Shown: piece by piece, positions 2,719 to 23,570 of the stretch
Numbering within the stretch: position 1 is the stretch's first letter
Layout of the letters: each line of letters begins with the position of its first letter
DNA from: Terriglobales bacterium
GTDB lineage: Bacteria > Acidobacteriota > Terriglobia > Terriglobales > Acidobacteriaceae
DNA: 25,755 nucleotides
Assembly: GCA_037915955.1 (NCBI GenBank)
Contig: JBAIYI010000094.1
Coordinates: forward strand, 1-25,755
Reading direction: 5' to 3'
Translations under genes and position numbers: made by a program
Notes under the pieces: model-generated
Told to the model about the DNA's origin: nothing
The model's input: the letters and a program-made list of their open reading frames with translations, nothing else
Database searches by the model: none

Positions 2719-4089
2719 GTGGCAGAAACTCGCGTGATGAATCGAAACTTCATGTTCCTGTGGCAGGGCCAGATCGTCAGCCAGGTGGGAACGCAGCTCT
2801 TTCAGGTGATCGTCATCCTATCCCTTAAGCAAGCCACGCAGTCGGCGACTTTGGTTGGGCTGTTCATGATGGCCGCAACTGTGCCCGCTCTCTTGCTGGG
2901 CCCGCTGGGCGGCGCCGTGGTGGACCGCTACTCACGCAAGTCAGTCCTGGTGACGGGAGATTTGATCCGCGGGGTGGCGCTCACGGGTTTGGCTGCGGCT
3001 CTCTGGCTCGGCTCGCACTCGCTGACAATCGTGGTTGGATCGCTGTTCGTTTATTCGCTGCTTGAAGGCAGCGTTGGCGCGGTGTGGCAGCCGGCGAGTA
3101 TTTCCGTTGTGCCTGATCTGGTGCCGAAAGAAGGTGTGGGAACGGCGAACTCTTTCATCCAAGGTTCCTTTCAACTCTGTACGGTGCTGGGGCAGGTGAT
3201 CGCCGGAATACTGTTTCGCCTGGTGGGTGCGCCGCTGCTGATGCTGGTGGATGCTGCGACCTACTTCTATGCCGCTGTGAGCGATGCCTTCATTCGCATC
3301 CCCGCGGCCACAGCGAAAGCTTCAGACGAGACTCCGAAGGCAAAGAGTTTTAAAGCGGAGATCGTGGAAGGCCTGCGGCACATCCACACCCGTCCGGGGA
3401 TGCGGATGCTCTTCTACACCATGGCGTTCTTCCAGCTTGTCATGGTGCCAATGCTCATCCTCTTTCCCTTTTATGTAGAGGACTTTCTGCGAGCCGGGCC
3501 ACAGTGGTACGGCTTCCTGCTGGCAGCATCCGGGTTGGGAACCTTCGTTGGATACGGACTGGGAGGCGCACTCAAGCTGTCGCCGCGCAACTCCAGCAGC
3601 GTAACAGTATCCGTAATGGTTCTCATGTCGTTGTGCCTGACTGCACTGGCTTTTGCCAAAGGACCATGGATTGCCCTGGTGCTGATCGCAGCCGTTGGAG
3701 CCATGGACGGATTCATCGTTCTCAAGTTGTTGACAACTCTTCAACTAGCAACGCCTACGGAAATGCGTGGCCGCGTATTCGGACTGCTCATGACGATCAC
3801 TCGAGGACTTACTCCTGTCGCCATGGGGCTCACGGGAGTGATCGCTGACATGATGCATCGCAACATTCCGCTGATCTATGGCGTTTGCGGCGCGGTAGCC
3901 ACGCTGCTGGCGAGCAATGTGGCCGTCCGCGGTGAATGCCGAGCGTTTCTGGCGGGCGAAGACGCCACCGACCATGGCTCCGCTCCCACTCCGATTCAAA
4001 GCAAAGCTCCGGCTATGCTGGAAGCCCCAGACGCCGCTATGAACGCGCCTCTTCTCTGCCAGTTTGATTCCCTGCAGGAGATCAAATGA
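2719..4089 (+). CDS. MFS transporter, DHA3/macrolide-efflux-like, 456 aa
   Basis: About 12 hydrophobic segments; N-terminal NFMFLWQGQIVSQVG; motif A-like GGAVVDRYSRKSVLVTGDLIRG; AAGGAG RBS 8 nt before the GTG; stop overlaps the NRPS start (ATGA). Confidence 0.92.
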   Translation: MAETRVMNRNFMFLWQGQIVSQVGTQLFQVIVILSLKQATQSATLVGLFMMAATVPALLLGPLGGAVVDRYSRKSVLVTGDLIRGVALTGLAAALWLGSHSLTIVVGSLFVYSLLEGSVGAVWQPASISVVPDLVPKEGVGTANSFIQGSFQLCTVLGQVIAGILFRLVGAPLLMLVDAATYFYAAVSDAFIRIPAATAKASDETPKAKSFKAEIVEGLRHIHTRPGMRMLFYTMAFFQLVMVPMLILFPFYVEDFLRAGPQWYGFLLAASGLGTFVGYGLGGALKLSPRNSSSVTVSVMVLMSLCLTALAFAKGPWIALVLIAAVGAMDGFIVLKLLTTLQLATPTEMRGRVFGLLMTITRGLTPVAMGLTGVIADMMHRNIPLIYGVCGAVATLLASNVAVRGECRAFLAGEDATDHGSAPTPIQSKAPAMLEAPDAAMNAPLLCQFDSLQEIK

Positions 4090-9299: not shown

Positions 9300-9340
9300 T
9301 CAGCTTGCCGATACGGTTTCTTGTGGATCGGAGGACGAAA

Positions 9341-9919
9341 ATGCCGGGCGAAATCTCGAAACTACATTCACGACACTTGCGGCGCGCATGGAAGGAAGTG
9401 CAATCGGCCATCGCAGGAATGACTCCCGAGCAAATGACGTGGGCGCCGGAAGGGAAGTGGTCAGCTGCGAATTTGCTTGAGCATCTCTCGCTGGGCTTCC
9501 TCATTACCGTGAAGGCCTCCGGCGTGGTCCTGCGCCAGGAGAGCCCGGGGCTTCCTGAGGCCACGCGGAGCCAGCATTGGTGGACATTTCGGGTCATCAC
9601 GCTCGGGTACCTTCCCATGCGCGTAAAAGCACCCAGAATGGTTTGCCCAAGAGGACAGAGTCCGGAAGAAGCACTTACGGCGCTCATGGAGAACCTGGTG
9701 GAAATGGACCATCGTCTGCAGAAGTGTCACGAAAAATTTGGGACGAAGGTCGGCCTGCTGGCTCATCCGTATCTTGGGCCATTGACGGTAAATCAGTGGA
9801 GGAAGTTTCAGCTTTTTCACGTGCGCCGTCATATGAAGCAGATCTGGCAGCTGAGAAAGCAGATGGCGAGGGCGTCCACGGACGAAGCGGCTTCCCCGGT
9901 GCGGTCATCAGCAGCTTGA
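9341..9919 (+). CDS. DinB/DUF1569-superfamily protein (putative metal-dependent four-helix bundle), about 192 aa
   Basis: WSAANLLEHL and HPYLGPLTVNQWRKFQLFHVRRHMKQI match the DinB His pattern. GGAGG RBS precedes ATG 9341, so this start is preferred over the ORF-track start 9296. Confidence 0.8.
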   Translation: MPGEISKLHSRHLRRAWKEVQSAIAGMTPEQMTWAPEGKWSAANLLEHLSLGFLITVKASGVVLRQESPGLPEATRSQHWWTFRVITLGYLPMRVKAPRMVCPRGQSPEEALTALMENLVEMDHRLQKCHEKFGTKVGLLAHPYLGPLTVNQWRKFQLFHVRRHMKQIWQLRKQMARASTDEAASPVRSSAA

Positions 9920-9923
9920 AGAT

Positions 9924-9959
9924 GGTCCGCCGCTGGACATGGCAGTCCAGAAATGGACA
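9924..9959. promoter_or_regulatory. Tandem dyad site pair A (putative enhancer/UAS of a sigma54 activator)
   Basis: GGTCCG-CCGC-TGGACA (9924-9939) and AGTCCA-GAAA-TGGACA (9944-9959), 20-bp period, upstream of permease 1. Confidence 0.7.
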
Positions 9960-9990
9960 GTTTTCACCGATCTGCGGACCAAAACTTGCA

Positions 9991-10003
9991 TAACTTGTTG
10001 CTT
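9991..10003 (-). promoter_or_regulatory. IHF-like binding site
   Basis: Minus strand reads AAGCAACAAGTTA, one mismatch to WATCAANNNNTTR. It lies between pair A and a candidate -24/-12 element. Confidence 0.4.
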
Positions 10004-10028
10004 TTCAAAGCCCATACGTCTGCCTGAA

Positions 10029-10043
10029 TGGAGCGCAAACTGC
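10029..10043 (+). promoter_or_regulatory. Weak candidate sigma54 -24/-12 promoter for permease 1
   Basis: TGGAGCGCAAACTGC has GG-N10-GC but poor flanks. An alternative, CGGACCAAAACTTGCA, lies at 9975-9990. Confidence 0.3.
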
Positions 10044-10089
10044 GAGCTTAAAAGTGGGCCAAAACTGTGACCGGAATTGGAGATAGAAC

Positions 10090-12549
10090 GTGAGTACCCT
10101 GAGACAAGATATCCAGTACGCACTGCGGCAGATGCTGAAGAACCCCGGCTTTGCGCTCGTGGCGATCGTGACGTTAGCGTTGGGGATCGGCACCAACACA
10201 GCGATTTTCAGCGTGGTCAACGGCTGGCTCAGGCCATTGCCGGTCAAAGATCCCAACCGAGTGGTGGTATTGGCTGCACAGCAAAAGGGAGACACGCTGG
10301 GCATCTATTACTTCTCCTATCCGGACCTGGTTGATTTCCGCAAACAGGCGGCAACATTTTCTGACTTGTTTGCCTACGAGATTGGCCTGGGCGGTCTAAG
10401 CATAGAGGGCAAGGCAGAGCCCGTCGTATTCAGCTACGTGACAGGGAACTTCTTCTCGGCCCTGGGAGTTCAACCCGCCGCAGGCCGACTTTTTCTACCG
10501 AATGAAGGTGAACAGCCCGGCGCAACACCCATGGTGGTGCTGGGCTATTCGTATTGGCAGAAAAGGTTTTCAGGAGACATCGGCATTGTCGGAAAGCAAG
10601 TACGCTTAGATGGCAATGCGGCAGTCGTGATAGGAGTTGCCCCCAGAGGCTTCCACGGCGTGGCGCCGAATGTGGACATGCAGGCATACCTGCCGCTAAG
10701 CATGCTCGCGGGTGAGACTCGCGGAAACGGGCTGTGGACAGAGCGAGGACAGAGAACGCTGGCGGTGCTCGGAAGAGTCAAGGATAACGTTACACTTGCG
10801 CAGGCACAGAGTTCGGTAACTCTTGTCGCAAATCGGCTGGCCCTGGAATATCCAAAGACAGACGATGGAGTCAGCGTCACCGTGGTTCCAGAAAAACTCG
10901 CCCGCCCGGTTCCCAAGATGGCAAGTGCGATTCCTGTGATCGCAGGATTGTTTCTGGTGATGGCCGGAGTGGTGCTCGTGCTTGCGTGTATGAACGTGGC
11001 AAACCTGATGCTCGCGCGAGCCACGACTCGCCAAAAAGAGATATCCGTGCGAATGGCACTGGGAGCGAGCCGTGTCCGCGTTGTGCGGCAATTGCTGACG
11101 GAAAGCATCGTCCTTGCGCTTTTCAGCGGAATATCCGGTGTACTGCTGGGAATGTGGGCCAGTGGCGCAATAGGATCGATCAACCTGGGAACGAAACTCC
11201 CACTGGTGCTGGATTTCGGTTTGGATTGGCGCGTGTTCGCCTATAGCCTGCTGGCGGCGCTGGTGACTGGCGTGATTGTGGGCGCATGGCCAGCATTGCG
11301 CGCAGCCCGCGGTGGACTCAGCGCAGGACTGCAAGACGGAAGCCGCGGCGGATCAGCCAGCGCCAGCAGGGTTCGCGTGCGCAGCCTGCTGGTCGTCGCG
11401 CAGGTAGGCTGCTCTCTTATGCTGCTGGTGGTGGCGGCGCGATTTGTGCGCAGCCTTGATAAGGCACAGCACATGGCGCTCGGCTTTGAGCCGGAGAATG
11501 TGGTTAACGTGATGGTGGATCCACATCAGGTCGGGTACGACCAGACGCGGACAGTCGAGTTCTATCGTGAACTGGAACGGCGCGTGCGAGCGCTGCCCGG
11601 AGTGCAGTCCGCGAGCCAGGCATTCAGCGTCCCCATGGGTAATTACAACGACGGCAGCCCTGTCTATATCGAAGGTCAACCCCTGCCGCCGGGGCAACAG
11701 CCACCGCTGCTTTTCTTCAACAGAATTGGAACGGATTATTTTCAGACATTACGAACTTCGCTGCTTCGCGGACGCACCTTCACGGAAGCAGATAACGGCA
11801 GCGCACCCCTGGTGGCGGTTATCAACCAGGCCATGGCAGACCGCTTCTGGCCGAAAGAGGACGCAGTCGGGAAACGCTTCAGCATGAAGAGCGCCTCCGG
11901 ACCCTTCCTGCAAGTGATTGGCATCGCACATGACAGCAAGCTCTTCGGATACTTCTCCGGAGCGCTACCTTATTATTACGTTCCGTTTGACCAGAACTTC
12001 ACCTCAATGAGGATCCTGCAGGTGCGTTCGTCTGTGGCTTCGGAAACATTGATCTCGCAGCTCAAAGAACAGGTGCAATCGCTCGATCCGGAAATGCCCG
12101 TCTCTGATCTACAGACCATGCGTGAAGTCATGGAAGGCGGAAATGGATTTCTTGTATACCGGCTGGGCGCAGCCCTGACCGCGATCATGGGCATACTCGG
12201 GTTCGTTATCGCGGTGGTGGGTGTGTACGGAGTGGTCTCATTCGCAGCGGCTCAGCGCACGCGGGAAATCGGGGTACGCATGGCGCTTGGAGCCAGCAAA
12301 GGCAACATACTCAATCTCATCCTGGGGCAGGGTGTGCGGCTGATCACCATTGGGGCCATGCTGGGATTGATAGCTGCCTTTGGGCTGACCCGCGCAATGG
12401 CGAAACTGCTGGTAGGAATAAGTGCCGGCGATCCGGGAACGTTTGTTCCCGCTACATCGATCTTACTGCTGGTTGCGCTTGGCGCTTGTTACATACCCGC
12501 GCGACGCGCAATGCGGCTTGATCCAGTGGTTGCTCTGCGTCACGAGTAG
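10090..12549 (+). CDS. ABC transporter permease, duplicated MacB_PCD/FtsX type (ADOP-like), 819 aa
   Basis: N-terminal LRQDIQYALRQMLKNPGF...LALGIGTNTAIFSVVN; two FtsX repeats (RQKEISVRMALGAS and RTREIGVRMALGAS); C-terminal ARRAMRLDPVVALRHE; no Walker motifs. Confidence 0.93.
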   Translation: MSTLRQDIQYALRQMLKNPGFALVAIVTLALGIGTNTAIFSVVNGWLRPLPVKDPNRVVVLAAQQKGDTLGIYYFSYPDLVDFRKQAATFSDLFAYEIGLGGLSIEGKAEPVVFSYVTGNFFSALGVQPAAGRLFLPNEGEQPGATPMVVLGYSYWQKRFSGDIGIVGKQVRLDGNAAVVIGVAPRGFHGVAPNVDMQAYLPLSMLAGETRGNGLWTERGQRTLAVLGRVKDNVTLAQAQSSVTLVANRLALEYPKTDDGVSVTVVPEKLARPVPKMASAIPVIAGLFLVMAGVVLVLACMNVANLMLARATTRQKEISVRMALGASRVRVVRQLLTESIVLALFSGISGVLLGMWASGAIGSINLGTKLPLVLDFGLDWRVFAYSLLAALVTGVIVGAWPALRAARGGLSAGLQDGSRGGSASASRVRVRSLLVVAQVGCSLMLLVVAARFVRSLDKAQHMALGFEPENVVNVMVDPHQVGYDQTRTVEFYRELERRVRALPGVQSASQAFSVPMGNYNDGSPVYIEGQPLPPGQQPPLLFFNRIGTDYFQTLRTSLLRGRTFTEADNGSAPLVAVINQAMADRFWPKEDAVGKRFSMKSASGPFLQVIGIAHDSKLFGYFSGALPYYYVPFDQNFTSMRILQVRSSVASETLISQLKEQVQSLDPEMPVSDLQTMREVMEGGNGFLVYRLGAALTAIMGILGFVIAVVGVYGVVSFAAAQRTREIGVRMALGASKGNILNLILGQGVRLITIGAMLGLIAAFGLTRAMAKLLVGISAGDPGTFVPATSILLLVALGACYIPARRAMRLDPVVALRHE

Positions 12550-12587
12550 GCTGCGAACCTGCAACTCCCCCTGACGCGACTGGTGCA

Positions 12588-12641
12588 TTACGGCCCGGGA
12601 CGGTCAAAGCTGGCTGCTCCCGGGCCGTAACTTTCTTTTTT
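12588..12641 (+). terminator. Rho-independent terminator after permease 1, between convergent genes
   Basis: Perfect 13-bp stem TTACGGCCCGGGA (12588-12600) / TCCCGGGCCGTAA (12618-12630), followed by CTTTCTTTTTT. Confidence 0.8.
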
Positions 12642-12645
12642 CGCA

Positions 12646-14064
12646 TCATTGCGACTGCGCGCCGTTCCCATGGGCGACGATGCACTCCGGGATTTTGATT
12701 TCAGCTTCGCAACCGGAAACATCAACGCGATTGCGAAGAAGCAGGCTTCCGCCGTGCGCCTCCACGATCTGCCGGCACAGCACCAGACCTATTCCGGCCC
12801 CGCCTTCCTTGGTCGTATAAAACGGCACAAATAAATTGGATGGATCAAGAAGGCCGAGACCCTGATCGCGGACCCACAATTCGAGATCACTGCCCGTTTG
12901 CTTCCAACTCACTGTCACTAGCGGTTCATCCCGCTGTGACGCTTCGGGTCTGGCCAGCACTGCTTCGGTGGCGTTCTTGATGAGGTTAATTAAGACCTGC
13001 TCCAATTGATCAGGATCCAGGTTGACGGTGAGTTCCGGTCCGGGATCCAGTCCGACCTGCAGCCTGCATTCAAGCCCGGCAACCCGCTTGAGCAGCTTGT
13101 TCAGGCATACATCGCGGCGGGCAGGTGCAGGAAGCCGAGTGAGCTGGGCATAACTCTGAAGGAAGCGATTTAACGCTTCGGCACGCGTTCCAATCACTTC
13201 CAGTCCAAGATCAACGTCCTTGTGGATGCGGTCCGGCAGCGTGGTTTGCGAAAGGATCCTTGCAAGCGTGCGGGACACGGACTTGATCGGAGCCAGAGAA
13301 TTGTTGATCTCATGGCTCAAGACGCGGACCATGCGCTGCCATGCCTGACGCTCTTCCGCGCGTAGAGCTTCTGAAGCTTCCGAGAGCAAGATCAGCCTGT
13401 GAGGAATGCCGCTCTGGCGGAAGTGCGTACGGCGGACGATCCAACGCTTCTCCTGGCCATTTGAAAAGCGCGAGATGGTTTGCGAAGGCGGCCCTTCCAG
13501 CAGCTCGGCAATACCGAGATCGGCCGCGGTGCTGCTGATCGCTGTGGTTTCACGTATCCCCAAGAACCTGGCCGCGGCACGATTATGGAGTTGAAGGCGG
13601 CCGTCCATGGTGAATGCCATGATGACGTCATCCGCTTCCGAGATGACCTTACGCAGCAGGTTTTCGGCTTCCATGGTTCCCAGGCGCTCAGATTCAAGCG
13701 CGCGGGCGAGATTGTTGATTTCAATTGCCAGGTCGCCAAGAGCATCACCGGACAAGGCGCGTGTAGCGCGAAACGAAAAGTCTTCTTCCTTCACTGAGGC
13801 GACGACATTCGAGAGGACGCGCATGGCATTCACGACCCGATTGCGCGCGGAGAAGGCCAGCCCGAGCCAGAAGAGCCCGACAAATACAGTTCCCTCAATC
13901 TTATGGTCGAGAGCATAAGAGCCGGACCAGAGCAGAGCAAACGCCAGGACCCCACAAGGAAGCCCAGTGGCGAGAACGGAAAACAGCAGCCTTCGTTCGA
14001 AGGGTATGCTGGATGCCGGCTTATGCTTTCTCTTTTTTGACTGCGGAAGGAACATAGAGGCCAT
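12646..14064 (-). CDS. Membrane sensor histidine kinase (NtrY/NtrB-like, PAS-like central region), about 472 aa
   Basis: Two N-terminal TM segments; H-box LSHEINNSLAPI; N-box EQVLINLIKNA; G1 DQGLG; F-box LFVPFYTTK; G2 GAGIGL. Start placed at ATG 14064 (MASMFLPQ; alternative 14055) rather than 14175. Confidence 0.92.
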   Translation of the reverse strand: MASMFLPQSKKRKHKPASSIPFERRLLFSVLATGLPCGVLAFALLWSGSYALDHKIEGTVFVGLFWLGLAFSARNRVVNAMRVLSNVVASVKEEDFSFRATRALSGDALGDLAIEINNLARALESERLGTMEAENLLRKVISEADDVIMAFTMDGRLQLHNRAAARFLGIRETTAISSTAADLGIAELLEGPPSQTISRFSNGQEKRWIVRRTHFRQSGIPHRLILLSEASEALRAEERQAWQRMVRVLSHEINNSLAPIKSVSRTLARILSQTTLPDRIHKDVDLGLEVIGTRAEALNRFLQSYAQLTRLPAPARRDVCLNKLLKRVAGLECRLQVGLDPGPELTVNLDPDQLEQVLINLIKNATEAVLARPEASQRDEPLVTVSWKQTGSDLELWVRDQGLGLLDPSNLFVPFYTTKEGGAGIGLVLCRQIVEAHGGSLLLRNRVDVSGCEAEIKIPECIVAHGNGAQSQ

Positions 14065-15517
14065 GTTTTTCCATGCGCCGGTAGAAGGTTCCCCTGCTGA
14101 GTCCCAGGATCTCCGCAGCCTGGCTAACGTTGCCATTGAAGCGCGCGAGCGCCTTGCCGATGAGCAAGGCCTCAACCTGTTCCAGGCTCATATCTCCGAG
14201 CCCTGTGGCATCAGCGACGCTAGCCGTAGTGAGTCCCAGATGACTGGCCTCAATCCTTTCGTCACGGCACATAAGAACACCACGTTCGATGGTGTGGTCC
14301 AGCTCCCGCACATTGCCCGGCCATGAGTAATCGAGGAGCTTTTTCATTGCTTCCGGAGTGAAACCCTCAATCTGCTTGCCGTAACGCGTGCTGTACTTAT
14401 GCAGAAAGTGCGCCGCCAACGCGGGTATGTCTTCCTTCCGCTCGCGGAGGGCGGGCAGGTGAATTTCTACAGTATTTAAACGGAACAGGAGGTCTTCGCG
14501 GAAATCGCCGGCCGCGCAGGCAGCCTTGAGGTCAGCGTTGGTGGCGGAAATAACACGAACATTCACCTTTTGAGTCCGGGACGAACCGACCCGCTCCATT
14601 TCTCCGGTTTCCAGAACACGAAGAAGGCGGGCCTGCTGCCGCATGGGAACATTGGCTATTTCATCCAGGAAGAGGGTGCCGCCATCGGCCATCTCAAAGC
14701 GGCCGATGCGATCGGTACGCGCGTCAGTGAATGCGCCGCGGACATGCCCGAAGAGTTCGCTTTCGAAGGTGCCTTCCGGAAGACCGCCTGTGTTCACGGT
14801 GATGAGAGGTTTTTCTGCCCGGCGCGAGACGGCATGGAGCATCTGAGCAACGACTTCCTTGCCGGTGCCGTGCTCGCCGGTGATGAGCACGCTGGCGTCC
14901 GAAGGACCGAATTGGGCAATTGCATCGGCCACGGGACGCATGGAGGGCGCCTGGGCAATGAATGTGGTGCGCCCGCGGTTCCGCATCAGATGATTTTCTG
15001 CCGCCAGTCGCTGCCCCTGACGAAGGGCGCGGTAGAGTTCGGCATGCACGGTGATGGTAGCGACCAGCCGCTCATCATCCCACGGCTTCTGGATGAAGTC
15101 ACGCGCACCGCGACGCACCGCGGCAACCGCTAAATCAATGGTTCCCCATGCGGTCATCACGATAATCGGAATCTGACTGTCAATTTCGCGGATACGATCC
15201 AGAAGCTCGATGCCTTCGCGTCCCGAGGTGGTATCGCGCGCGTAATTCAGGTCGAGCAGCAATGCATCGTATTCGCGCAGTGTAATGGACTCGAGCACGA
15301 CCTGAGGCGAGCGAACGCAGTCAACCTCGAAGCCATGGGAGCGAAAGAGCAACTTCAGAGCATCGAGAACGGCAGCCTGATCATCGGCCACCAGGATGCG
15401 GTAGGGGTGTTCGCTGATACGCACGCTGCTGTCCTCTCTTGCGTAAACAGGCATTGCACCGATTGAGAGGAGATCTGCGGCGAGGTCAAATGGGTATAGC
15501 GTTCCCATTGTCATCAC
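14021..15517 (-). CDS. Sigma54-dependent response regulator (REC-AAA+-Fis HTH); start uncertain (15517 is coupled to the permease 2 stop, or 15454)
   Basis: REC motifs ILVADD, LLDLNY, MTAWG and FIQKPW; Walker A GEHGTGKE; ESELFGHVRGAFTDA; TLFLDEI; WPGNVREL; HTH GNVSQAAEILGLSRGTFYRRM. Confidence 0.95.
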   Translation of the reverse strand: MMTMGTLYPFDLAADLLSIGAMPVYAREDSSVRISEHPYRILVADDQAAVLDALKLLFRSHGFEVDCVRSPQVVLESITLREYDALLLDLNYARDTTSGREGIELLDRIREIDSQIPIIVMTAWGTIDLAVAAVRRGARDFIQKPWDDERLVATITVHAELYRALRQGQRLAAENHLMRNRGRTTFIAQAPSMRPVADAIAQFGPSDASVLITGEHGTGKEVVAQMLHAVSRRAEKPLITVNTGGLPEGTFESELFGHVRGAFTDARTDRIGRFEMADGGTLFLDEIANVPMRQQARLLRVLETGEMERVGSSRTQKVNVRVISATNADLKAACAAGDFREDLLFRLNTVEIHLPALRERKEDIPALAAHFLHKYSTRYGKQIEGFTPEAMKKLLDYSWPGNVRELDHTIERGVLMCRDERIEASHLGLTTASVADATGLGDMSLEQVEALLIGKALARFNGNVSQAAEILGLSRGTFYRRMEKHGLYVPSAVKKEKA

Positions 15518-17949
15518 TCGCTCCTCAGCACGGCCATCGGCTCAATCGCCGTTGCACGAACAGCGATCAGCAGGCTGGTCACGAGAGCAATGCCGGCAAG
15601 AACAAGCGCAGCGCCAGCCAGCGAGCTCCATGTTATGCCGACCGTATTATAGATTACGAGTTTCAGCGTGTTTGCGAGTAGAACGCTCGCCAAAGCGCCG
15701 AGCGCGATTCCAATCAGTACCATACCGACTCCCTGCCTGATAATCAGGCTGATGATGTGAGCGCGCCTGGCGCCCACTGCCACGCGCATGGCAATCTCAC
15801 GCGTGCGCAAGACGAGGTGATAACTGAGCAGCCCGTAAAGGCCAACCGCGGTGAGTAACAGGGCGAAAACCCCAAAGATACCGGTAAGAGACACGTAAAA
15901 ACGAGGTCGAGCCAGCGAACCAGAAAGGACCTCCCGGAGAGGCCGAAGCGAGACGAGAGCAAGGTCAGAATCAGCACTTGCCAGCGGATGGCTGAGCGCC
16001 TGATAAAGATTGGCGCGACTGCTGGAACGGATCACGACAGACGTGGGAAACAGCAGATTTACGAAAACGGAAATTTTATCGGGGGTCTGTTTCAGACAAA
16101 TGAACGATGTGGGCGGAGCAGGTCGATCCAGCCCAGCTTCATGGACGTCAGCGACCACACCAACCACTTCGCGGGGAACGTCAGAGAATTGAGAGCCTAG
16201 ATCACTCCGCAGCGCGATGAACTTTCCCACGGCGGATTGATTCGGCCACCAGCGCCGAGCCAGAGTCTCATTCACGATAATCACCGGGCGGCCACCCTGG
16301 TCGTCGCGATCCGAGAAAGTGCGCCCGGTCCGAACGGGGATTCGCATTGTCTGGAAATATCCCGGGGTGATCACGCGCAGCTGGGATTCGCCATAGATCG
16401 TCTTGTCCTGTGCGTCCACAGGATAGAGCGGAAGGCCGAGCCCTTGTTCGAGGGGTAATCCATTGATTGTGGCGACGCTCTCCACGCCTGGCACCTGGGT
16501 CAAGGCATCGCGAATCTGATCAATCAACTGCACGGTGGCAGGCGTGGTGGTGTAGCGCCCGTCAATGAGCGAGATTTGCGCGACAGAAACCCCTTCCGCC
16601 TCAAAACCCGGCGAGACTGCATGGAGACGTAGAAACTGCGTCAACAGGGATGCTGTGCCCGCGAGCAGGCACAGCGTGAGCGCGGTCTGGGCAGTCACGA
16701 GAGCGCTCCCCAGCCGGGTCTGCTGGACCGTGGAAGTGCCCGAGAGAGGTGATTGTCGCAGTACGTCCTGGATGTGCACACCGGACATACGCAATGCAGG
16801 CGCTATGCCAGGCAGAACGGCTGCCGCGGCGGAGATCAACAAGATGAACAAGAGGACGTTGCCATCGATGGCTATGGCAGAGCTGAGGGGCAGGTCAGCC
16901 GGAGCCAGCCACTTGACGACGGGGATCAACTCCTTGCCCGCAATGGCGCCGAGGATACCTCCAGAAACCGCGATGAGCACGGCCTCCATCAGCCCCACGC
17001 TGATCAGGCGCCACCTGCTGGATCCAAGGGCAGCGCGAATGGCGAATTCATGACGCCGGGACGCTCCACGGACGGTAAAACACAAAGCCAGATTTGTGCA
17101 GGTGATAAGCAGAACAAATACGACTGCCCCGAATAACGAATAAAGACCGCGCCGGGTACCATCGACGATGAAGGATTGGAGTTCCTCAGGAACAAGGGCG
17201 GTTTCCGACGCCATGGAACGCAACGGATAAGTCGACCGGTATTCCGCAGATGTCGCCAGCTCCTGACGGGCCTGTTCTGCAGTGACGCCACCCTTCAGGC
17301 GGGCGATTACCCGATATTCGTTTCCCGCATCAGCGTTTGCCGGCGTGAGCCGCAATGGTATCCAGAGGTCCGCGGAGGGAAATGACCGAAACTTTTGCGG
17401 CATGATGCCGACGACAGTGTAGGGTTCGCCACTGATCCTAACGGAGGAGCCGATCACCGCAAGGTCTTTGTTGTAATCCTGGACCCAGGCGCCATAGCTC
17501 AACAGGACAGCGCGCGGGCCGCCGGGCTGGTCCTCTTCAGGAAGAAAGTCGCGGCCACGGTAAGGTGCTGCGCCAAGCGTCCGGAAGAAATTCAGAGATA
17601 CCTTCTGCACGTGCCTGTACTGAGGAGTTCCTATTCCGGCAACATTTACTCCACTATCCCGCGCTGCGGCAATGCTGGAAAAGAAGTGACCGCGCTCTTT
17701 CAGCTCGAAAAACGCAGACGCGGAGATATCGCGGGTAAGGCGACCTTCTGGGCCATACCAGGTCAAGATCACCAGCCGTTCAGGCTCCGAATAAGGGAGA
17801 GGGCGGAGCAATGCGGCATTGATGACACTGAACACAACCACGTTCGCGGCGATACCGATCGCGAGCGTCAAAACAGCCATCACCGTGAACCCCTGAGTAC
17901 GCTGAAGCGAACGCAGAGAATATGTGATGTCCTGTAAAAAACTGTGCAT
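15514..17949 (-). CDS. Second duplicated ABC permease (ADOP-like); likely start ATG 17949 (MHSFLQD...), ORF-track start 18006
   Basis: FLQDITYSLRSL...LTLAIGIAANVVVFSVINA; RRHEFAIRAALGSS; RTREIAMRVAVGA; C-terminal RATAIEPMAVLRSE; stop overlaps the regulator start. Confidence 0.92.
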   Translation of the reverse strand: MHSFLQDITYSLRSLQRTQGFTVMAVLTLAIGIAANVVVFSVINAALLRPLPYSEPERLVILTWYGPEGRLTRDISASAFFELKERGHFFSSIAAARDSGVNVAGIGTPQYRHVQKVSLNFFRTLGAAPYRGRDFLPEEDQPGGPRAVLLSYGAWVQDYNKDLAVIGSSVRISGEPYTVVGIMPQKFRSFPSADLWIPLRLTPANADAGNEYRVIARLKGGVTAEQARQELATSAEYRSTYPLRSMASETALVPEELQSFIVDGTRRGLYSLFGAVVFVLLITCTNLALCFTVRGASRRHEFAIRAALGSSRWRLISVGLMEAVLIAVSGGILGAIAGKELIPVVKWLAPADLPLSSAIAIDGNVLLFILLISAAAAVLPGIAPALRMSGVHIQDVLRQSPLSGTSTVQQTRLGSALVTAQTALTLCLLAGTASLLTQFLRLHAVSPGFEAEGVSVAQISLIDGRYTTTPATVQLIDQIRDALTQVPGVESVATINGLPLEQGLGLPLYPVDAQDKTIYGESQLRVITPGYFQTMRIPVRTGRTFSDRDDQGGRPVIIVNETLARRWWPNQSAVGKFIALRSDLGSQFSDVPREVVGVVADVHEAGLDRPAPPTSFICLKQTPDKISVFVNLLFPTSVVIRSSSRANLYQALSHPLASADSDLALVSLRPLREVLSGSLARPRFYVSLTGIFGVFALLLTAVGLYGLLSYHLVLRTREIAMRVAVGARRAHIISLIIRQGVGMVLIGIALGALASVLLANTLKLVIYNTVGITWSSLAGAALVLAGIALVTSLLIAVRATAIEPMAVLRSE

Positions 17950-18027
17950 TGCGCCGTGGCATCTCCTGGAACCCACTGCCGCCGTGGAGTACTCACTCTG
18001 CTCCACGGCGAGTGCTCTCTTTCAGCA

Positions 18028-18043
18028 GGCACTCGAAGGGCCA
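18028..18043 (-). promoter_or_regulatory. Candidate sigma54 -24/-12 promoter for the permease 2-regulator-kinase operon
   Basis: Minus strand TGGCCCTTCGAGTGCC has GG-N10-GC, about 50 bp downstream of pair B. Confidence 0.55.
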
Positions 18044-18093
18044 CACATAACTACTGATGATTCAAGGGATTCGGGCTGAACGGACACCTATTT

Positions 18094-18129
18094 TGTCCGC
18101 GGGCGGACACCCCTGTCCAGTGCTGGACA
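18094..18129. promoter_or_regulatory. Tandem dyad site pair B (best match to consensus)
   Basis: TGTCCG-CGGG-CGGACA (18094-18109) and TGTCCA-GTGC-TGGACA (18114-18129), both perfect dyads, 20-bp period. Confidence 0.8.
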
Positions 18130-18242
18130 GTAAAAAATCTGAGCGTCCAATGGTGGCCACTGCGGTGATTTCCACCGGACCTCCGCTGCCGCGGCCACAC
18201 GCACTGGCAAACCCGGTGCTTTCTCGTTTACTCCCTCGCAAA

Positions 18243-18278
18243 TGTTCGCACGTGGACATGGCAATCCAGCTCTGGACA
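18243..18278. promoter_or_regulatory. Tandem dyad site pair C, upstream of lanA-lanKC
   Basis: TGTTCG-CACG-TGGACA (18243-18258) and AATCCA-GCTC-TGGACA (18263-18278), 20-bp period, with the same TGGC spacer as pair A. Confidence 0.65.
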
Positions 18279-18542
18279 ACCAGAACCCCGCTGGATCGAT
18301 TCACAAGGTGCAAAGAATCGGAATGTGAGTGCGCAAATTTGCACTCAGGAAACATCGGTTTTTGCGAGAGGAAAAGAGGGACCGGCATGGGTGCTCTGCC
18401 CGGACGGCAAAATTAGGAAACACATAGCTTTGCGCTGTTTTTGCGAATCCCGAAATAGAAAACTCGGAAGCAGTGGAGAGCGTGTGATCTTCGATTCTCT
18501 GAAACTGTATTCGTGGTTGTCACAAAGGGTGTGTGACGGATT

Positions 18543-18558
18543 TGGCAGAGATCATGCT
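18543..18558 (+). promoter_or_regulatory. Sigma54 -24/-12 promoter of lanA-lanKC
   Basis: TGGCAGAGATCATGCT: GG at 18544-45 and GC at 18556-57 with exactly 10 nt between, about 50 nt upstream of the precursor ATG. Confidence 0.7.
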
Positions 18559-18608
18559 ATTCAGATCAGCGGGCCCCCAAAACCTTGAGATCAATCAGGA
18601 GAACAGCC

Positions 18609-18746
18609 ATGACACGAGTATTGATGCTTCAGAAAATGCATTCCAACAGCAGCACCTCCGAGTGCGGAAACCTGTTTGGCAGCGCCGTAAGCACCATCTG
18701 CCCGGAAGGTCCGAACGCCGCGGAGAGCCCGTTTCAGATGGAGTAA
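18609..18746 (+). CDS. lanA: Class III lanthipeptide precursor, 45 aa: MTRVLMLQKMHSNSSTSECGNLFGSAVSTICPEGPNAAESPFQME
   Basis: AGGAG RBS at 18597-18601, ATG 18609, TAA 18744-46. The leader motif VLMLQ resembles the class III (I/V/L)LxLQ motif. It has S25-x2-S28-x2-C31 and S12-x2-S15-x3-C19 motifs and sits directly upstream of lanKC. It is below the ORF-track length cutoff. Confidence 0.88.
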   Translation: MTRVLMLQKMHSNSSTSECGNLFGSAVSTICPEGPNAAESPFQME

Positions 18747-18755
18747 TCCAGGAAA

Positions 18756-18796
18756 GGGCCCTCTGACGATATTCCCCCATTTGCGACAGAGGGCCC
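18756..18796 (+). other. Stem-loop between lanA and lanKC (mRNA stabiliser/attenuator candidate)
   Basis: GGGCCCTCTG (18756-65) pairs perfectly with CAGAGGGCCC (18787-96); no U-tract follows. Confidence 0.65.
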
Positions 18797-18819
18797 GAAG
18801 CCGGCAAGAGGCACGACGC

Positions 18820-21588
18820 ATGCGGAGCAGACCCAATCCGTTATTTCGACTCCTGGACCACGATTACCACGAGACCTTCACAGCGTATAAGCCTCGCACG
18901 GCAGATTTCTTCGACGCGATTTCCCGGAAGCTGCCCAGTGGATGGTCCATTCAACGCAGCGGAATCTGGTTCCACTGTGGTTCACAAAACAACAATGTTC
19001 CGCAGCAGGGATGGAAGATTCACGTTTCGGCGACACCTGCCAGCGCGGGTGCGATCCTGGAGCAAGTGACCACGGTGCTCTTCAGGCGTTGTGATACGGA
19101 TTTCAAATTCGCGCTGGACATGAACACACTTTCCCTGATGAACAGCAAGAACTGGTCGCGCGGGAAATCAGGAAAGTTCATCACAATCTATCCGCAGACT
19201 ACTGCAGATTTCCGGCAACTCATTGAAGAGCTATACCAGGCGACGCGAACATTCTGCGGTCCTTATATTCTGTCTGACCATCGTTACAAAGACAGCCGGG
19301 TTGTCTTCTTTCGCTATGGTGGCATGCGCCTGCATGAAACCCTGAATGTGAAGGGGGAACGCACGCCCATGCTGATAGCTCCTGACGGGACAGAAGTTCC
19401 CGATGAGCGCACTCCGTATCCGGTGGTACCTGCATGGGAGAATCCGCCTATTCCGGTTGAGGATCCGTCCCAACCCGATCCTCCAACCTGCACGATGAAG
19501 CAAGGCCGGTATGAGATCGAAGATGTGCTGGATTTCTCCAATGCCGGCGGTGTGTACCGCGCATTGGATACACACACCGGCCGCAAGGTGGTGATCAAGG
19601 AAGCGCGGCCATGCGTGAATGCAACCCCGGACGGATACGATGCGGTGGAATCGCTCAAGAAAGAATACCGGCTGCTCAACGTACTGAAAGAGGCCGGCAT
19701 TGCTCCTGCACCCCTGGAACTGTTTCAGGAATGGGAGCATTGGTTTCTGGTGGAAGAATTCGTGGCAGGCCTTTCACTGGCGGCACACTCGGCGCAACAC
19801 AACGTCCTGCTACGCACCAGGCCATCACAAAAGGATTTTGAGGACTGGTATGAGAGATTCCGCGGCATATGCAGCGGCCTGGCACGAATCTTGAAGACCC
19901 TGCACGACCATGGGATCGTGTTTGCGGATCTCTCTATCAACAACCTGATTGTTGCCGACTCAGATGGGGAGCTCAAGATCATTGATTTTGAGGGAGCTAC
20001 CCAGGCAGGAGTTGACCGGCCAAGCTCGCTGTACACGCCCGGCTTTGTCTCTGAGAAGAGGCTGAAAGGCGCAAGCGCCGGGTTCGATGACGATTACTAT
20101 TCTGCGGGCGCCGTGCTGATGGCCTGTCTGTTCCCAGTCAATGCCCTGATCCACCTCAATGGGCAAGCGAAGCGGACCTTTATTGAATGCATAAATAAGG
20201 ATACGCGGTTCCCCAAGCCGGTCACGGACATGGTGCTCCAGTTGATGGGGTCGGAACCGGAGAACCGGCCAGATTCCGCGACAATGATTGAAGTCATCGA
20301 GCATAATCCAACCCTTGCTCCGCCAGCTGCTCAGGTGCGTCCAAAATATGAACATGAGGCTTTACTCTCATCGATGGTGGCTCACCTGGAGCACTCGGCC
20401 AGCTATTGGCGCGATGACCGGCTCTTCCCCGCGGATCCCAGGGTATTCACGACTAACCCGCTGAGCCTGGCCTATGGAGCAGCCGGAGTGGGTTATTCAT
20501 TGAAGAAGGTCACGGGCAAAAGTTCACCGCTCATCATGGACTGGATCCTGCGGCACAAAATCAGCCGTGAAGATTACGCGCCAGGACTGTATGTCGGACT
20601 GTCAGGAATAGCGCTGGGCCTTCTTGAAATGGGTGCGCTCGATGACGCGAGAAAAATATTCCAGCTCACGTTTGAGCATCCTCTGCTGCACAAAGATCCC
20701 GGAATTTTCTACGGCACAGCGGGCTGGGGTATGACGTGCCTGCGTTTCTTTCTTGAAAGCGGAGATGAACTTTACCTGAAAAAAGCGGAAGCGGCTGGTC
20801 GTGCCCTGATGCAACGGGTGCACGTCTCTCCGGCCGGATATTCCTGGGAAGCTGCGAGCGAAGCACAACTCGGTTTCGCACACGGCGCCAGCGGCATTGC
20901 CCTGTTCCTGCTTTATCTCTCCTTCGCCACGCACAATTTTGAGTTTCTGGAAGCGGGACGCAAGGCGCTTGAGTTCGACTTAAGTTTTGCGGTGACAACG
21001 CAGGACGGCGGCTCTTCCTGGCGACAGGCAGTCCATGGGCAGTCGCCGGTTTTTCCGTACTGGCGATACGGGAGCGCGGGCATCGGAACCGCCGCACTGC
21101 GTTTTGCCAAGGTCCTCGACGATCCGATATATCGTGCCGCGCTGGAGAAAATATTCATCGATACCGACCGCCAGTATGTGGTGATGCCTGGGAAATTTCT
21201 TGGGCAGGCCGGGTTGGCAGACTTTGCCCTTGATATGTTCGAGTTCACGGGCAGCACAAGATATCTGAAATCCGCCTTGCGGGCGAGCGAAAGCATGGAG
21301 CGGTTCCGCGTAGAGAGACCGCAGGGCACGGCGTTTCCCGGTGACATGCTCTCACGGTTGTGCTGCGATTACGGCACGGGAAGCGCGGGCATCGCGCTGG
21401 TATTCAACCGGCTGGCTCACGGCGAACGGAATGACTTCCTGCTGGACTGCCTGCTGGAGCAGGCCGGCATTCTTGATAAACCACAACGGAACAGAAGAAG
21501 CCTCTCTGCTGCCCTGCTTGCCGAGGACTATTCCAATCACGATTCAGATTCGGGCGACGACAGGCCACCGCTGATCTCAGTAGCGTGA
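18820..21588 (+). CDS. lanKC: Class III lanthipeptide synthetase (lyase-kinase-cyclase), about 922 aa
   Basis: Lyase motifs QGWKIHVSA, GKFITIYP, GPYILSD and FFRYGG; kinase motifs FSNAGGVY, VVIKEARP, FADLSINNLIV and IIDFE; cyclase motifs GFAHGASGIA, PYWRYGSAGIG and CCDYGTGSAGI, lacking WCHG/CHG Zn ligands. AAGAGG RBS precedes ATG 18820, preferred over TTG 18781, which lies inside the hairpin. Confidence 0.93.
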   Translation: MRSRPNPLFRLLDHDYHETFTAYKPRTADFFDAISRKLPSGWSIQRSGIWFHCGSQNNNVPQQGWKIHVSATPASAGAILEQVTTVLFRRCDTDFKFALDMNTLSLMNSKNWSRGKSGKFITIYPQTTADFRQLIEELYQATRTFCGPYILSDHRYKDSRVVFFRYGGMRLHETLNVKGERTPMLIAPDGTEVPDERTPYPVVPAWENPPIPVEDPSQPDPPTCTMKQGRYEIEDVLDFSNAGGVYRALDTHTGRKVVIKEARPCVNATPDGYDAVESLKKEYRLLNVLKEAGIAPAPLELFQEWEHWFLVEEFVAGLSLAAHSAQHNVLLRTRPSQKDFEDWYERFRGICSGLARILKTLHDHGIVFADLSINNLIVADSDGELKIIDFEGATQAGVDRPSSLYTPGFVSEKRLKGASAGFDDDYYSAGAVLMACLFPVNALIHLNGQAKRTFIECINKDTRFPKPVTDMVLQLMGSEPENRPDSATMIEVIEHNPTLAPPAAQVRPKYEHEALLSSMVAHLEHSASYWRDDRLFPADPRVFTTNPLSLAYGAAGVGYSLKKVTGKSSPLIMDWILRHKISREDYAPGLYVGLSGIALGLLEMGALDDARKIFQLTFEHPLLHKDPGIFYGTAGWGMTCLRFFLESGDELYLKKAEAAGRALMQRVHVSPAGYSWEAASEAQLGFAHGASGIALFLLYLSFATHNFEFLEAGRKALEFDLSFAVTTQDGGSSWRQAVHGQSPVFPYWRYGSAGIGTAALRFAKVLDDPIYRAALEKIFIDTDRQYVVMPGKFLGQAGLADFALDMFEFTGSTRYLKSALRASESMERFRVERPQGTAFPGDMLSRLCCDYGTGSAGIALVFNRLAHGERNDFLLDCLLEQAGILDKPQRNRRSLSAALLAEDYSNHDSDSGDDRPPLISVA

Positions 21589-21679
21589 TCTATGTTCCGC
21601 AATCTCAAGCTCCAGAAAAACCGAATGACTTTTGTTTAACGGCTGGACAGCGGCGCCAGGTTCAATTTCTAAAGGCTTT

Positions 21680-21715
21680 TGTCCGTGAGTGGATACTTGC
21701 GTCCGAAGCTGGACA
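21680..21715. promoter_or_regulatory. Tandem dyad site pair D, upstream of the second sigma54 activator
   Basis: TGTCCG-TGAG-TGGATA (21680-21695) and CGTCCG-AAGC-TGGACA (21700-21715), 20-bp period. Confidence 0.7.
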
Positions 21716-21765
21716 AGCGCGAAATCTAAGACCGGTCTAAGTGGCGTGGATTGAGCACGGGATTT

Positions 21766-21781
21766 TGGCAAGCTGCTTGCC
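21766..21781 (+). promoter_or_regulatory. Sigma54 -24/-12 promoter (near-palindromic)
   Basis: TGGCAAGCTGCTTGCC closely matches TGGCAC-N5-TTGC, about 50 bp downstream of pair D. Confidence 0.75.
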
Positions 21782-21920
21782 TTTCTAAAAGGTTGGTTGC
21801 ACATCGGACGCACCGGACGAGAAACATTCCGGAGGGCGAAAACGGAAGACCGGGTTGCGGGAAAAATGGCTTTCAAGCCGGCAACTTTTTTCCGCTCCCA
21901 AACGTAATGAGAGGGTGATC

Positions 21921-23570
21921 ATGGCGACCCCACGCCTTGCTTACGATCAAGAGTCTTTGTTCAACGGAGTTTCCATTTTGTTCCGCGGACTGCAATACCC
22001 GAGCCAGGCAGAGGACACCATCACCGCCTCGTTCGAATCGGTGGCGCATGGACTGGCGGCGGTACGTGGCGGAGTATTTCTGGTCCGGCATGAGCCTGAC
22101 TCAATCCGGCTGGAAACGCTTTGCCAAACCGGACTGCAGGCGAGTGAGATCGCTGCGATTGAATCTGGTCCGACCAGCGGGATCAGTGTGGCGGACCGCA
22201 TATGGAAGGCATACACAGAAAAATCCAAGACAGAAGAGAAAGGCGCTGAGCAGCCCGCGGAAGCAATCCAAAACATATCGCCGGGGCTGCACGTGCTTTC
22301 CGCAGTGGTGCTTGATCCGGTGCTGGACGTGCCTGCCGCCATCCTGCACGTGGAGCGCGAGGAAGATACGAACCCGGAGCTGCAGGCGGTGGCCAGCAAA
22401 TGGCTGGGTCTTTACACATTGGCTCTTGGCCAGCTGGTGCGGCTGGGATTTCCAAGGATTCTGTGCGCGGAGGAGAAGGACTCGCGCCCGTTAGAGATCA
22501 AGGCACCGGAAGACGCGCCGGAAATCGTTGGCGTGTCTCTGCAGACGCAAGCTCTGCGGCAGGAGCTACATGATATCCATATTCCTGCGGCCAGCGCTCC
22601 TGACCCCGATCCCATCCTGATCCTTGGAGAAAAGGGTACAGGAAAAGATCTGGTGGCCCGCTACATCTATTCCTACAGCCTGCGCCGCAACAAGCCGTAT
22701 GTCGCCGTGAACTGCGCTGAAATCACAGACGAACTGGCTACCGCGCGTTTCTTCGGGCACAAGAAGGGATCGTTCACCGGATCGCTGGCGAACGAGCCGG
22801 GACTGTTTCGCGCGGCAGATCACGGAGTCCTGTTCCTGGATGAGATCGGCGACCTTTCTCTGAAGGCGCAGGGAACGCTGCTGCGGGTTCTGGAAAACCG
22901 CACGGTGGTGCCACTGGGTGAGACGCGAGAGCAGCGCATCGATGTGCAGGTAATCCTGGGGACCAACTGCGATCCGGAACGGGCCGTGGCGGAAGGCCGC
23001 ATGCGGCCGGACCTGCTTGACCGTTTCCGCACGCAGGCCATTCGGCTGGCGCCTTTGCGCGAGCGGCCCTGGGACATTCCGGCGCTGGTGCGGCATTTCA
23101 TCGCTTATAACGAGAAGCGGACACAGAAGACTATCCTCAGCCTGCATGCCGACGTATTAAAGATGATGGTGGGTTATTCATGGCCGGGCAACGTGCGAGA
23201 ACTGGCGCGCGTGTGCTCGCTCCTGATCACGCACGTGAAATCCGGCAGTCCAATTGATACCGCGCTGTTCACGCGCCTGATTCCCTACATCGCGAGACAG
23301 GAATGGAACCCGAAGGCGGGCGCGATGCTGGTGGGAGACATCCCCATGCGTGAAGCGCTGGAGACCTTTGGCCGCGAACTTATCCTGGCCAGGCTGCGCC
23401 AGCACAACTGGAACATCAAGTCGGCGCGCGAGAGCCTTGGTCTGCCGAAAACGACATTCCACCGCTACACGCGTGCGCTGGGAATCGCAGGCACGTTGCG
23501 GGAGGAAGCCGCGAACCTGGACCTTTCTCAGGCCAAGGCGCATGCGGCTGGATTTTCCGCAATGGGTTGA
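21921..23570 (+). CDS. Sigma54-type AAA+ enhancer-binding protein with divergent (possibly GAF-like) N-terminal domain and HTH, about 549 aa
   Basis: Walker A GEKGTGKD; RFFGHKKGSFTGS (GAFTGA variant); VLFLDEIGD; YSWPGNVREL; HTH NWNIKSARESLGLPKTTFHRY. Start placed at ATG 21921 after GAGAGGGTG; the ORF track uses 21855. Confidence 0.9.
   Translation: MATPRLAYDQESLFNGVSILFRGLQYPSQAEDTITASFESVAHGLAAVRGGVFLVRHEPDSIRLETLCQTGLQASEIAAIESGPTSGISVADRIWKAYTEKSKTEEKGAEQPAEAIQNISPGLHVLSAVVLDPVLDVPAAILHVEREEDTNPELQAVASKWLGLYTLALGQLVRLGFPRILCAEEKDSRPLEIKAPEDAPEIVGVSLQTQALRQELHDIHIPAASAPDPDPILILGEKGTGKDLVARYIYSYSLRRNKPYVAVNCAEITDELATARFFGHKKGSFTGSLANEPGLFRAADHGVLFLDEIGDLSLKAQGTLLRVLENRTVVPLGETREQRIDVQVILGTNCDPERAVAEGRMRPDLLDRFRTQAIRLAPLRERPWDIPALVRHFIAYNEKRTQKTILSLHADVLKMMVGYSWPGNVRELARVCSLLITHVKSGSPIDTALFTRLIPYIARQEWNPKAGAMLVGDIPMREALETFGRELILARLRQHNWNIKSARESLGLPKTTFHRYTRALGIAGTLREEAANLDLSQAKAHAAGFSAMG

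Follow-up and report, generated by a model that had tools for sequence, protein, structure and literature searches.

A probable class III lanthipeptide precursor family of the uncultured soil genus Candidatus Angelobacter and its putative sigma-54-dependent control region

The precursors of class III lanthipeptides are defined by a hydrophobic leader box of the LxLQ or ILELQ type and by core motifs in which two serines and a cysteine follow the spacing Sx2Sx2-5C (PMC8341899, PMC7268733). In the founding class III system, formed by the labyrinthopeptin precursors LabA1/A2 and LabKC, a trifunctional LanKC enzyme is combined with an ILELQ-type leader and with cores in which two serines two residues apart are followed by a cysteine; these peptides contain two Sx2Sx3C motifs and end at the core. 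ThurKC of Bacillus thuringiensis (andalusicin, class III-a; PDB 8SAM and 8SAO) is served by seven precursor genes, ThurA1-7, and residues M-22, V-19, L-18, L-16, Q-15 and L-13 of the ThurA1 leader have been reported as important (PMC10604976). The substrates of enzymes from classes III-a and III-c, the latter represented by TherA/TherKC of Thermoactinomyces (PDB 9WJ0 and 9WOP), share an STxSNxC core motif and a VLxLxxL leader pattern (PMC13504147). As to the ring formed, the Sx2Sx2-5C motif is turned into lanthionine by a number of class III enzymes; according to a 2020 review, the cyclases of this class lack a histidine of the NisC His212 type, and its absence was suggested there to favour labionin (PMC8341899).

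Candidatus Angelobacter (Acidobacteriota, class Terriglobia) is a widespread uncultured soil genus so far known for NRPS/PKS clusters. The paper on the genus makes no mention of RiPPs (PMC9723581), and in the searchable literature we found no description of a class III lanthipeptide from Acidobacteriota nor of Angelobacter lanthipeptides. The DNA analyzed here belongs to this genus according to the NCBI names of close relatives of the peptide described below. The window, i.e. the whole stretch of 25,755 nucleotides, corresponds to contig C4 of an assembly of 918 contigs (75% complete), and parts of it are contained in 20 metagenome DNA runs, mostly from soil, rhizosphere or sediment, with no RNA run among those retrieved by the sequencing-run search.

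Here we describe a 45-amino-acid open reading frame of this window, designated lanA, which very probably codes for the ribosomally made precursor of a class III lanthipeptide with one ring in Candidatus Angelobacter and which assigns a substrate to the LanKC genes of the genus. It represents a new, apparently genus-specific family of a well-known kind, the class III precursors, with an unusual putative sigma-54 control circuit. The combination of a minimal one-ring substrate, a His-bearing cyclase and a conserved sigma-54/two-component control region gives an unusually complete picture, of which the circuit and the His variant could prove to be more than a new family of class III precursors.

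The precursor gene and its family

The lanA reading frame (18609-18746 on the forward strand, stop included) extends from the ATG at 18609 to the TAA at 18744-18746, as read from the sequence and its translation. The ribosome-binding site AGGAG (18597-18601, forward strand) ends 7 nt 5′ of the ATG, and purine-rich sites occupy the equivalent position in the orthologs. The encoded peptide, P0001, gave no domain match in Pfam. It contains a leader recognition box V4-L5-M6-L7-Q8 (18618-18632), set within the family motif M-x2-[VI]-L-x-[LF]-Q-x-[LM] and defined by that motif together with the ThurA1 spacing and the modelled interface. The ring motif S25-A-V-S28-T-I-C31 (18681-18701) contains the sole Ser/Ser/Cys set that is invariant in the alignment and is followed by Pro32 and by a C-terminal tail of 14 residues with the terminus F-Q-M-E (18702-18743; recognized by family motif count), all on the forward strand. 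The frame, the strong ribosome-binding site, the VLMLQ leader motif and the S-x2-S-x2-C motif (SAVSTIC) had been described in the initial annotation, and all of them were found as described there; its term "labionin-type" stands for a motif match only.

The same annotation considered the ORF unannotated and hidden below the ORF cutoff, so that pipelines might report lanKC as lacking a precursor. That pipelines overlook the ORF does not hold, for the exact P0001 protein is present in a public protein collection (three member sequences from two contigs) and its NCBI relatives in Candidatus Angelobacter carry the label "hypothetical protein"; gene callers thus do call the ORF, and it is unannotated in the sense that it is nowhere named a lanthipeptide. 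The uninformative label is explained by the score of the window peptide, which remains below the precursor-model cut-off (13.8 vs 22 bits).

The distribution of the gene was followed in 36 other genomes of the genus, searched for LanKC. Full-length relatives of the enzyme were encoded in 12 of them (40-65% identity, 11 at 51% or more), and together with the window locus 13 loci were compared. The initial annotation had proposed a check for orthologous short ORFs upstream of related lanKC genes; at 12 of the 13 same-genus loci, the window's included, an ORF of 44-48 amino acids homologous to P0001 precedes LanKC by 23-185 nt on the same strand. The exception is the locus of genome G001 (L013/L029), whose LanKC is 40% identical and near which no homologous precursor was seen. 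Residues M1, L5, Q8, S25, S28 and C31 are invariant in the alignment of the 12 precursors. Comparison of lanA with its closest relative gave pN 0.14, pS 0.70 and dN/dS 0.08; since synonymous sites are saturated while pN is low, the amino-acid sequence is under purifying selection.

A profile search of 5.8 billion proteins retrieved 37 clusters related to P0001, which together with the members from the loci make up a set of 40 unique sequences. The leader start M-x2-[VI]-L-x-[LF]-Q-x-[LM] is common to all 40, the ring motif S-x2-S-x-[IVL]-C was found in 39, a proline directly after it in 38 and the terminal F[QE]M[EQ] in 37. The tail is 13-16 residues long in every member with the ring motif; the cysteine is single in 34/40, and in 30/40 the first ring serine is residue 25. 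Several Angelobacter peptides have a core reading S-T-Y-S-N-I-C. When the peptide profile was applied to 400 other genomes of the class (146 genera, only two of the genomes being from the same genus), no match was obtained, and therefore the family looks genus-restricted. The profile also detected no second precursor copy in the window's own genome.

The 12 aligned members were scanned against 18,950 NCBIfam models. Only class III precursor models were touched, all of them weakly: NF038154 (lanthi_III_a) by eight members (best E 5.8e-4), NF038160 by four and NF038159 by one. P0001 itself remained under the curated cut-offs, with 13.8 bits against 22 for NF038154 and 12.4 against 30 for NF038159. 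Judged by these profiles, the family is related to the three models yet not captured by them, and as a result annotation pipelines label the members of this new family, missed by current curated models, as hypothetical.

The LanKC synthetase and its predicted substrate

The lanKC gene (18820-21588, forward strand) starts with the ATG at 18820, 73 bases 3′ of the lanA stop, and encodes a class III lanthionine synthetase of 922 amino acids with lyase, kinase and cyclase domains, recognized by Pfam, by NCBIfam and by its invariant catalytic residues. Pfam matches comprise RamC_N (32-216), Pkinase (241-486) and LANC_like (623-873). The protein scored 760 bits on the class III LanKC equivalog model NF038151 (cut-off 575) but only 575 bits on the model for class IV, whose cut-off of 650 it thus misses. 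Its best solved relative is ThurKC (249 bits), the second-best TherKC (234 bits); a search of a genome-contig collection with the LanKC protein returned no relative. In ThurKC and other LanKCs, catalytic residues of the lyase and the kinase have been named; their counterparts K66, H68, K96, K110, K119, D153, R165, R197, K260, D370, N375, D389 and E391 are all invariant across 13 orthologs. The closest ortholog (L002, G020:C57:139175-141868; 65% identity) contains one in-frame TGA, which may be a sequencing error or a mark of a decaying gene; the lanA of that locus is intact and 71% identical.

The NisC zinc ligands C284, C330 and H331 were mapped through the ThurKC alignment and the S726/F770/D771 assignment in the residue table of PMC10604976. 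Their positions are occupied by R749, F793 and L794, so the cyclase is metal-free, a requirement of class III that sets it apart from class IV LanL. Unexpectedly, the acid/base position of NisC His212 and ThurKC Asp667 is taken by a histidine, His688 (20881-20883, within G-F-A-H-G-A-S-G), invariant in the 13 orthologs, which may favour lanthionine in this LanKC clade.

Both parts of the peptide agree with what is known of class III substrates. In the core, S25-x2-S28-x2-C31 conforms to the Ser-x2-Ser-x2-5-Cys rule (PMC8341899); in the leader, V-L-M-L-Q (residues 4-8) is a box of the LxLQ or ILELQ type. Both motifs are spaced as in the STxSNxC core and the VLxLxxL leader of class III-a/III-c substrates, and M1, V4, L5, L7, Q8 and M10 are spaced identically to the important residues of the ThurA1 leader.

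Residues 1-520 of LanKC were modelled with P0001 in three runs, with controls. The complex reached an ipSAE of 0.77 against 0.02 for the best control, a score which the similar solved complex of ThurKC with its leader (8SAM) may in part have lifted; among solved complexes 51 of 78 attained that mark, among mismatched pairs 2 of 108. At least 31% of the contacts were common to the runs and the peptide pLDDT was at least 41. Confident contacts were confined to peptide residues 1-13, placed in the lyase/kinase groove by lyase domain residues 114, 149-151 and 199-201 and by kinase N-lobe residues 224-261 and 304-307, and this groove is the one described for ThurKC. The ThurKC-leader complex having already been solved, the model demonstrates likeness and is not a proof: it supports binding of the P0001 leader by LanKC and does not show it.

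Compared by motif layout, the precursor family appears closest to the class III-a/III-c substrates. With the Thur system the Angelobacter locus shares the leader-box spacing of ThurA1 (M, +3 V, +4 L, +6 L, +7 Q, +9 L), the ring spacing S-x2-S-x2-C, a cyclase without zinc ligands and the lack of a protease in the cluster; with TherA it shares an STxSNxC-like core and a VLxLxxL-type leader (PMC13504147), and with the labyrinthopeptins a trifunctional LanKC, a hydrophobic leader of the ILELQ type and two serines two residues apart followed by a cysteine. Unlike the Thur system with its seven precursor genes, the Angelobacter cluster has one, and both the Thr-rich TITTT stretch and the methyltransferase are absent. 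Unlike ThurA, the Angelobacter peptides carry the conserved tail of 13-16 residues ending in F[QE]M[EQ], and the labyrinthopeptins with their two motifs are likewise unlike this peptide with a single Sx2Sx2C and a tail. In the enzyme, ThurKC Asp667 is replaced by His, and the proposed base of ThurKC, Asp771, by Leu794. The TherA cluster, in contrast to that of Angelobacter, carries an ABC transporter and an M16B peptidase. Finally, the host is a diderm acidobacterium and control is predicted to be of the sigma-54 type, again unlike the Thur system. A predicted single ring, the C-terminal tail, a retained catalytic-type His and a conserved sigma-54/two-component control region set the Angelobacter system apart from class III-a/III-c.

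Control region and neighbouring genes

A sigma-54 type promoter, TGGCAGAGATCATGCT (18543-18558, forward strand; TGGCA-N7-TGC), was recognized upstream of lanA by a pattern scan and by comparison of 12 loci. Its GG (18544-18545) and GC (18556-18557) are exactly 10 bases apart, and the element stands 51 nt before the ATG. The pattern TGGYA-N7-TGCW occurs five times in the window against 0.85 expected, a number reached by no shuffle, and a TGG-N9-TGC element is located 58-80 nt before the lanA ATG in 12/12 loci, amid otherwise unalignable DNA. rpoN is present in the genome and two sigma-54 activators are encoded in the window; a scan for sigma-70 type promoters near lanA gave matches no more frequent than in shuffled sequence. 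The location of the ORF between a sigma-54 promoter and lanKC, as put forward in the initial annotation, is borne out by these elements.

Farther upstream lies a pair of TGTCCA-N4-TGGACA-like dyads 20 bp apart (18243-18278, no strand assigned), a probable enhancer site for the sigma-54 activator according to the 12 loci. Closer to the divergent permease gene, a dyad scan revealed a second pair (18094-18129) together with a third, weaker dyad (18144-18159; 18094-18159 in all, no strand assigned); the dyads are 265-450 bp upstream. At least one such dyad precedes lanA in 12/12 loci, with pairs 20-21 bp apart in nine of them, and 40 of the 49 matches with at most two mismatches found at the 12 loci fall in the stretch upstream of lanA. 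In the middle of the divergent intergenic region (18201-18229), a forward-strand hairpin that resembles a terminator, T-run included, overlaps with a sigma-54-like sequence, TGGCAAACCCGGTGCT (18205-18220).

Additional 20-bp-spaced dyad pairs were noticed at 9924-9959 and 21680-21715. The former precedes the gene of a second ADOP permease (10090) and is followed by a sigma-54-like element at about 9974-9989; the latter precedes the second activator gene and is followed by the sigma-54-like TGGCAAGCTGCTTGC at 21766-21780. This arrangement points to a local regulon of small size.

Attenuation is usual where a precursor gene is followed by the gene of its synthetase. Folding of the lanA-lanKC interval indicated a stem-loop with a perfect GC-rich stem of 10 bp (18756-18796, forward strand; -27.7 kcal/mol, z = -2.7), a probable attenuator or processing structure. 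As we read the folds, about 9 of 12 orthologs have a stem-loop 3′ of the lanA stop, terminator-like with a T-run in two of them, and these hairpins fit such attenuation.

Three genes on the reverse strand adjoin lanA-lanKC. The divergent one (15514-18006) encodes an ADOP/MacB-type duplicated FtsX permease with two MacB_PCD and two FtsX stretches in Pfam. Since the alignment with its orthologs begins at residue 17-26, translation probably starts at the Met near 17949 and not at the GTG at 18006; given that start, the minus-strand TGGCCCTTCGAGTGC (18043-18029) would form a sigma-54-like element about 80 nt upstream. The next gene (14021-15517) encodes an NtrC-type response regulator with a receiver, a sigma-54 AAA+ domain and a Fis-type HTH (Pfam). 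The third (12646-14175; Pfam and hydropathy scan) specifies a histidine kinase whose two close transmembrane helices (62-84 and 95-110) are separated by an extracytoplasmic loop of about 10 amino acids, a layout typical of intramembrane sensing. As listed, with a TTG start, the kinase ORF shares 155 nt (14021-14175) with the end of the regulator ORF; translation probably begins at an internal Met (residue 14 or 38), which would mean tight coupling and not a long overlap.

Permease, response regulator and kinase adjoin lanA-lanKC in nine loci, in two of them in rearranged order (L027 and L030). Orthologs of the regulator (66-87% identity) occur in LanKC-bearing genomes only, and on the LanKC contig wherever the assembly is contiguous, while all genomes without them hold just a paralog of 60-65%. 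A kinase and a regulator beside the precursor operon resemble lantibiotic NisRK autoinduction and BceRS-BceAB sensing, and the FtsX-family permease with a large extracytoplasmic domain and the kinase with two transmembrane helices and almost no external loop resemble a Bce-type module. Unlike in those systems, the Angelobacter regulator is an NtrC-type sigma-54 activator and not of the OmpR type, and an adjacent gene for an ABC ATPase is lacking. The resemblance would be one of functional analogy, not membership. The Pfam scan of window genes (9296-23570) detected no ABC ATPase, and no protease gene was found in the window.

The second sigma-54 activator (21855-23570; likely start ATG 21922) has no receiver domain, and its GAFTGA loop reads G-S-F-T-G-S. 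Shared with the nearest relative only (75% identity), it was rejected as the conserved regulator and as a member of the conserved cassette; the receiver-containing protein encoded at 14021-15517 is the better candidate. A gene for an NRPS of 1737 amino acids (4086-9299) lies 9 kb from lanA. The nearest relative, G020, was the only genome with an ortholog (62% identity), situated on the same contig; in the other four LanKC-bearing genomes searched, the NRPS paralogs were generic (at most 37% identity) and none stood beside the cassette. A RiPP-NRPS hybrid in which this NRPS acts on P0001 was accordingly rejected as part of the conserved cassette, its ortholog being limited to G020.

Alternative readings and proposed pathway

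The assignment of lanA as a class III precursor gene, made already in the initial annotation, draws support from its position upstream of an intact LanKC, the leader box and the Ser/Ser/Cys triad conserved throughout the family, the purifying selection on the peptide, NCBIfam matches that are weak and confined to class III precursor models, and the predicted complex. On the other side stand the curated cut-off that P0001 misses (13.8 vs 22 bits), the window without genes for a leader protease or an ABC ATPase, the conserved 14-residue tail after the ring, atypical for characterized class III peptides, and the in-frame TGA in the LanKC of the closest relative.

The ORF might instead be an upstream ORF with a regulatory role or code for a small protein of an unrelated kind, with the real LanKC substrate encoded elsewhere, as its shortness, its score below the curated threshold and a 3′ hairpin able to act in attenuation would allow. 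That is hard to reconcile with selection on the amino-acid sequence (dN/dS 0.08), with never-changing residues that are precisely those a LanKC substrate needs, with a profile that has no second copy in the genome and with the binding model (0.77 vs 0.02 for the best control), and we consider it very improbable. A chance open frame in the intergenic region would be in keeping with the many overlapping short ORFs in all frames at this site, but it is refuted by the conservation data: homologs in 12 loci and 37 database clusters with length, start, motifs and terminus conserved, and a saturated pS of 0.70 against a pN of 0.14. Its probability is next to nil.

If P0001 is the substrate, its product may still be lanthionine instead of labionin, C31 adding to one dehydroalanine, the enolate being protonated and the other serine left as Dha or unmodified. 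This variant of the preferred explanation is a strong contender, with chances a little short of even. It agrees with the invariant His688 at the position of NisC His212 and ThurKC Asp667 (PMC10604976), with the suggestion that absence of this His favours labionin and with the lanthionine produced by several class III enzymes from the same motif (PMC8341899). ThurKC substrates of the same S-x2-S-x2-C spacing nevertheless yield labionin (PMC10604976), and two serines invariant at an exact two-residue spacing fit labionin geometry. As His688 is kept, contrary to the 2020 review (PMC8341899), labionin is favoured only slightly. As regards control, permease, kinase and regulator could form an independent stress or transport module that merely lies beside lanA-lanKC, lanA being controlled otherwise. 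ADOP permeases and sigma-54 activators are indeed very numerous in Acidobacteriota, and the dyads also precede the second permease gene (9924-9959) and the second activator gene (21680-21715). Against this, regulator orthologs of at least 66% identity occur only in LanKC-bearing genomes, on the LanKC contig where contiguous, the linkage survives rearrangement in L027 and L030, and dyads and sigma-54 promoter are kept upstream of lanA in 12/12 loci; an independent module therefore seems unlikely.

For lanA as class III precursor gene the following pathway is proposed. LanKC would phosphorylate S25 and S28, possibly also other Ser/Thr residues, and eliminate the phosphate to give dehydroalanines, to which C31 would add, forming either labionin (S25/S28/C31) or lanthionine and one dehydroalanine. 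With ThurA1 as a guide, the leader would comprise about the first 22 residues, cut off by a protease encoded elsewhere. Transcription of lanA would start at the sigma-54 promoter and be activated by the NtrC-type response regulator of the cassette from the paired TGTCCA-N4-TGGACA dyads; we infer this five-gene cassette, with its regulator acting on the lanA dyads, from co-occurrence and analogy. The intramembrane-type kinase and the ADOP permease probably serve sensing, export, immunity or self-protection, and the hairpin that follows lanA is probably there to keep the lanA:lanKC ratio of transcripts high.

A bolder proposal, which taken as a whole we regard as speculative and rather doubtful, sees in the five genes a self-contained sigma-54-driven circuit, new for lanthipeptides, and in the peptide a signal of the autoinducing type no less than an antibiotic. 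Once exported, the peptide with its ring would then be sensed by the loop-less kinase and the ADOP permease, its F[QE]M[EQ] tail may act as a recognition or follower element, and the NtrC-type regulator would fire the lanA promoter and other dyad-bearing promoters. The metal-free cyclase with its retained catalytic His would offer a natural test of the lanthionine versus labionin choice.

The genus also contains paralogous LanKC loci with precursors of their own (L030, G033:C15; L031, G008:C122; L032, G020:C52), which start with M-x2-I-L-x-L-Q as in lanA and differ in their cores. The L030 precursor, devoid of the F[QE]M[EQ] terminus, keeps S-x2-S-x-I-C. The cores at L031 and L032 contain several cysteines, and L032 comprises two tandem precursor genes with products of about 80 amino acids.
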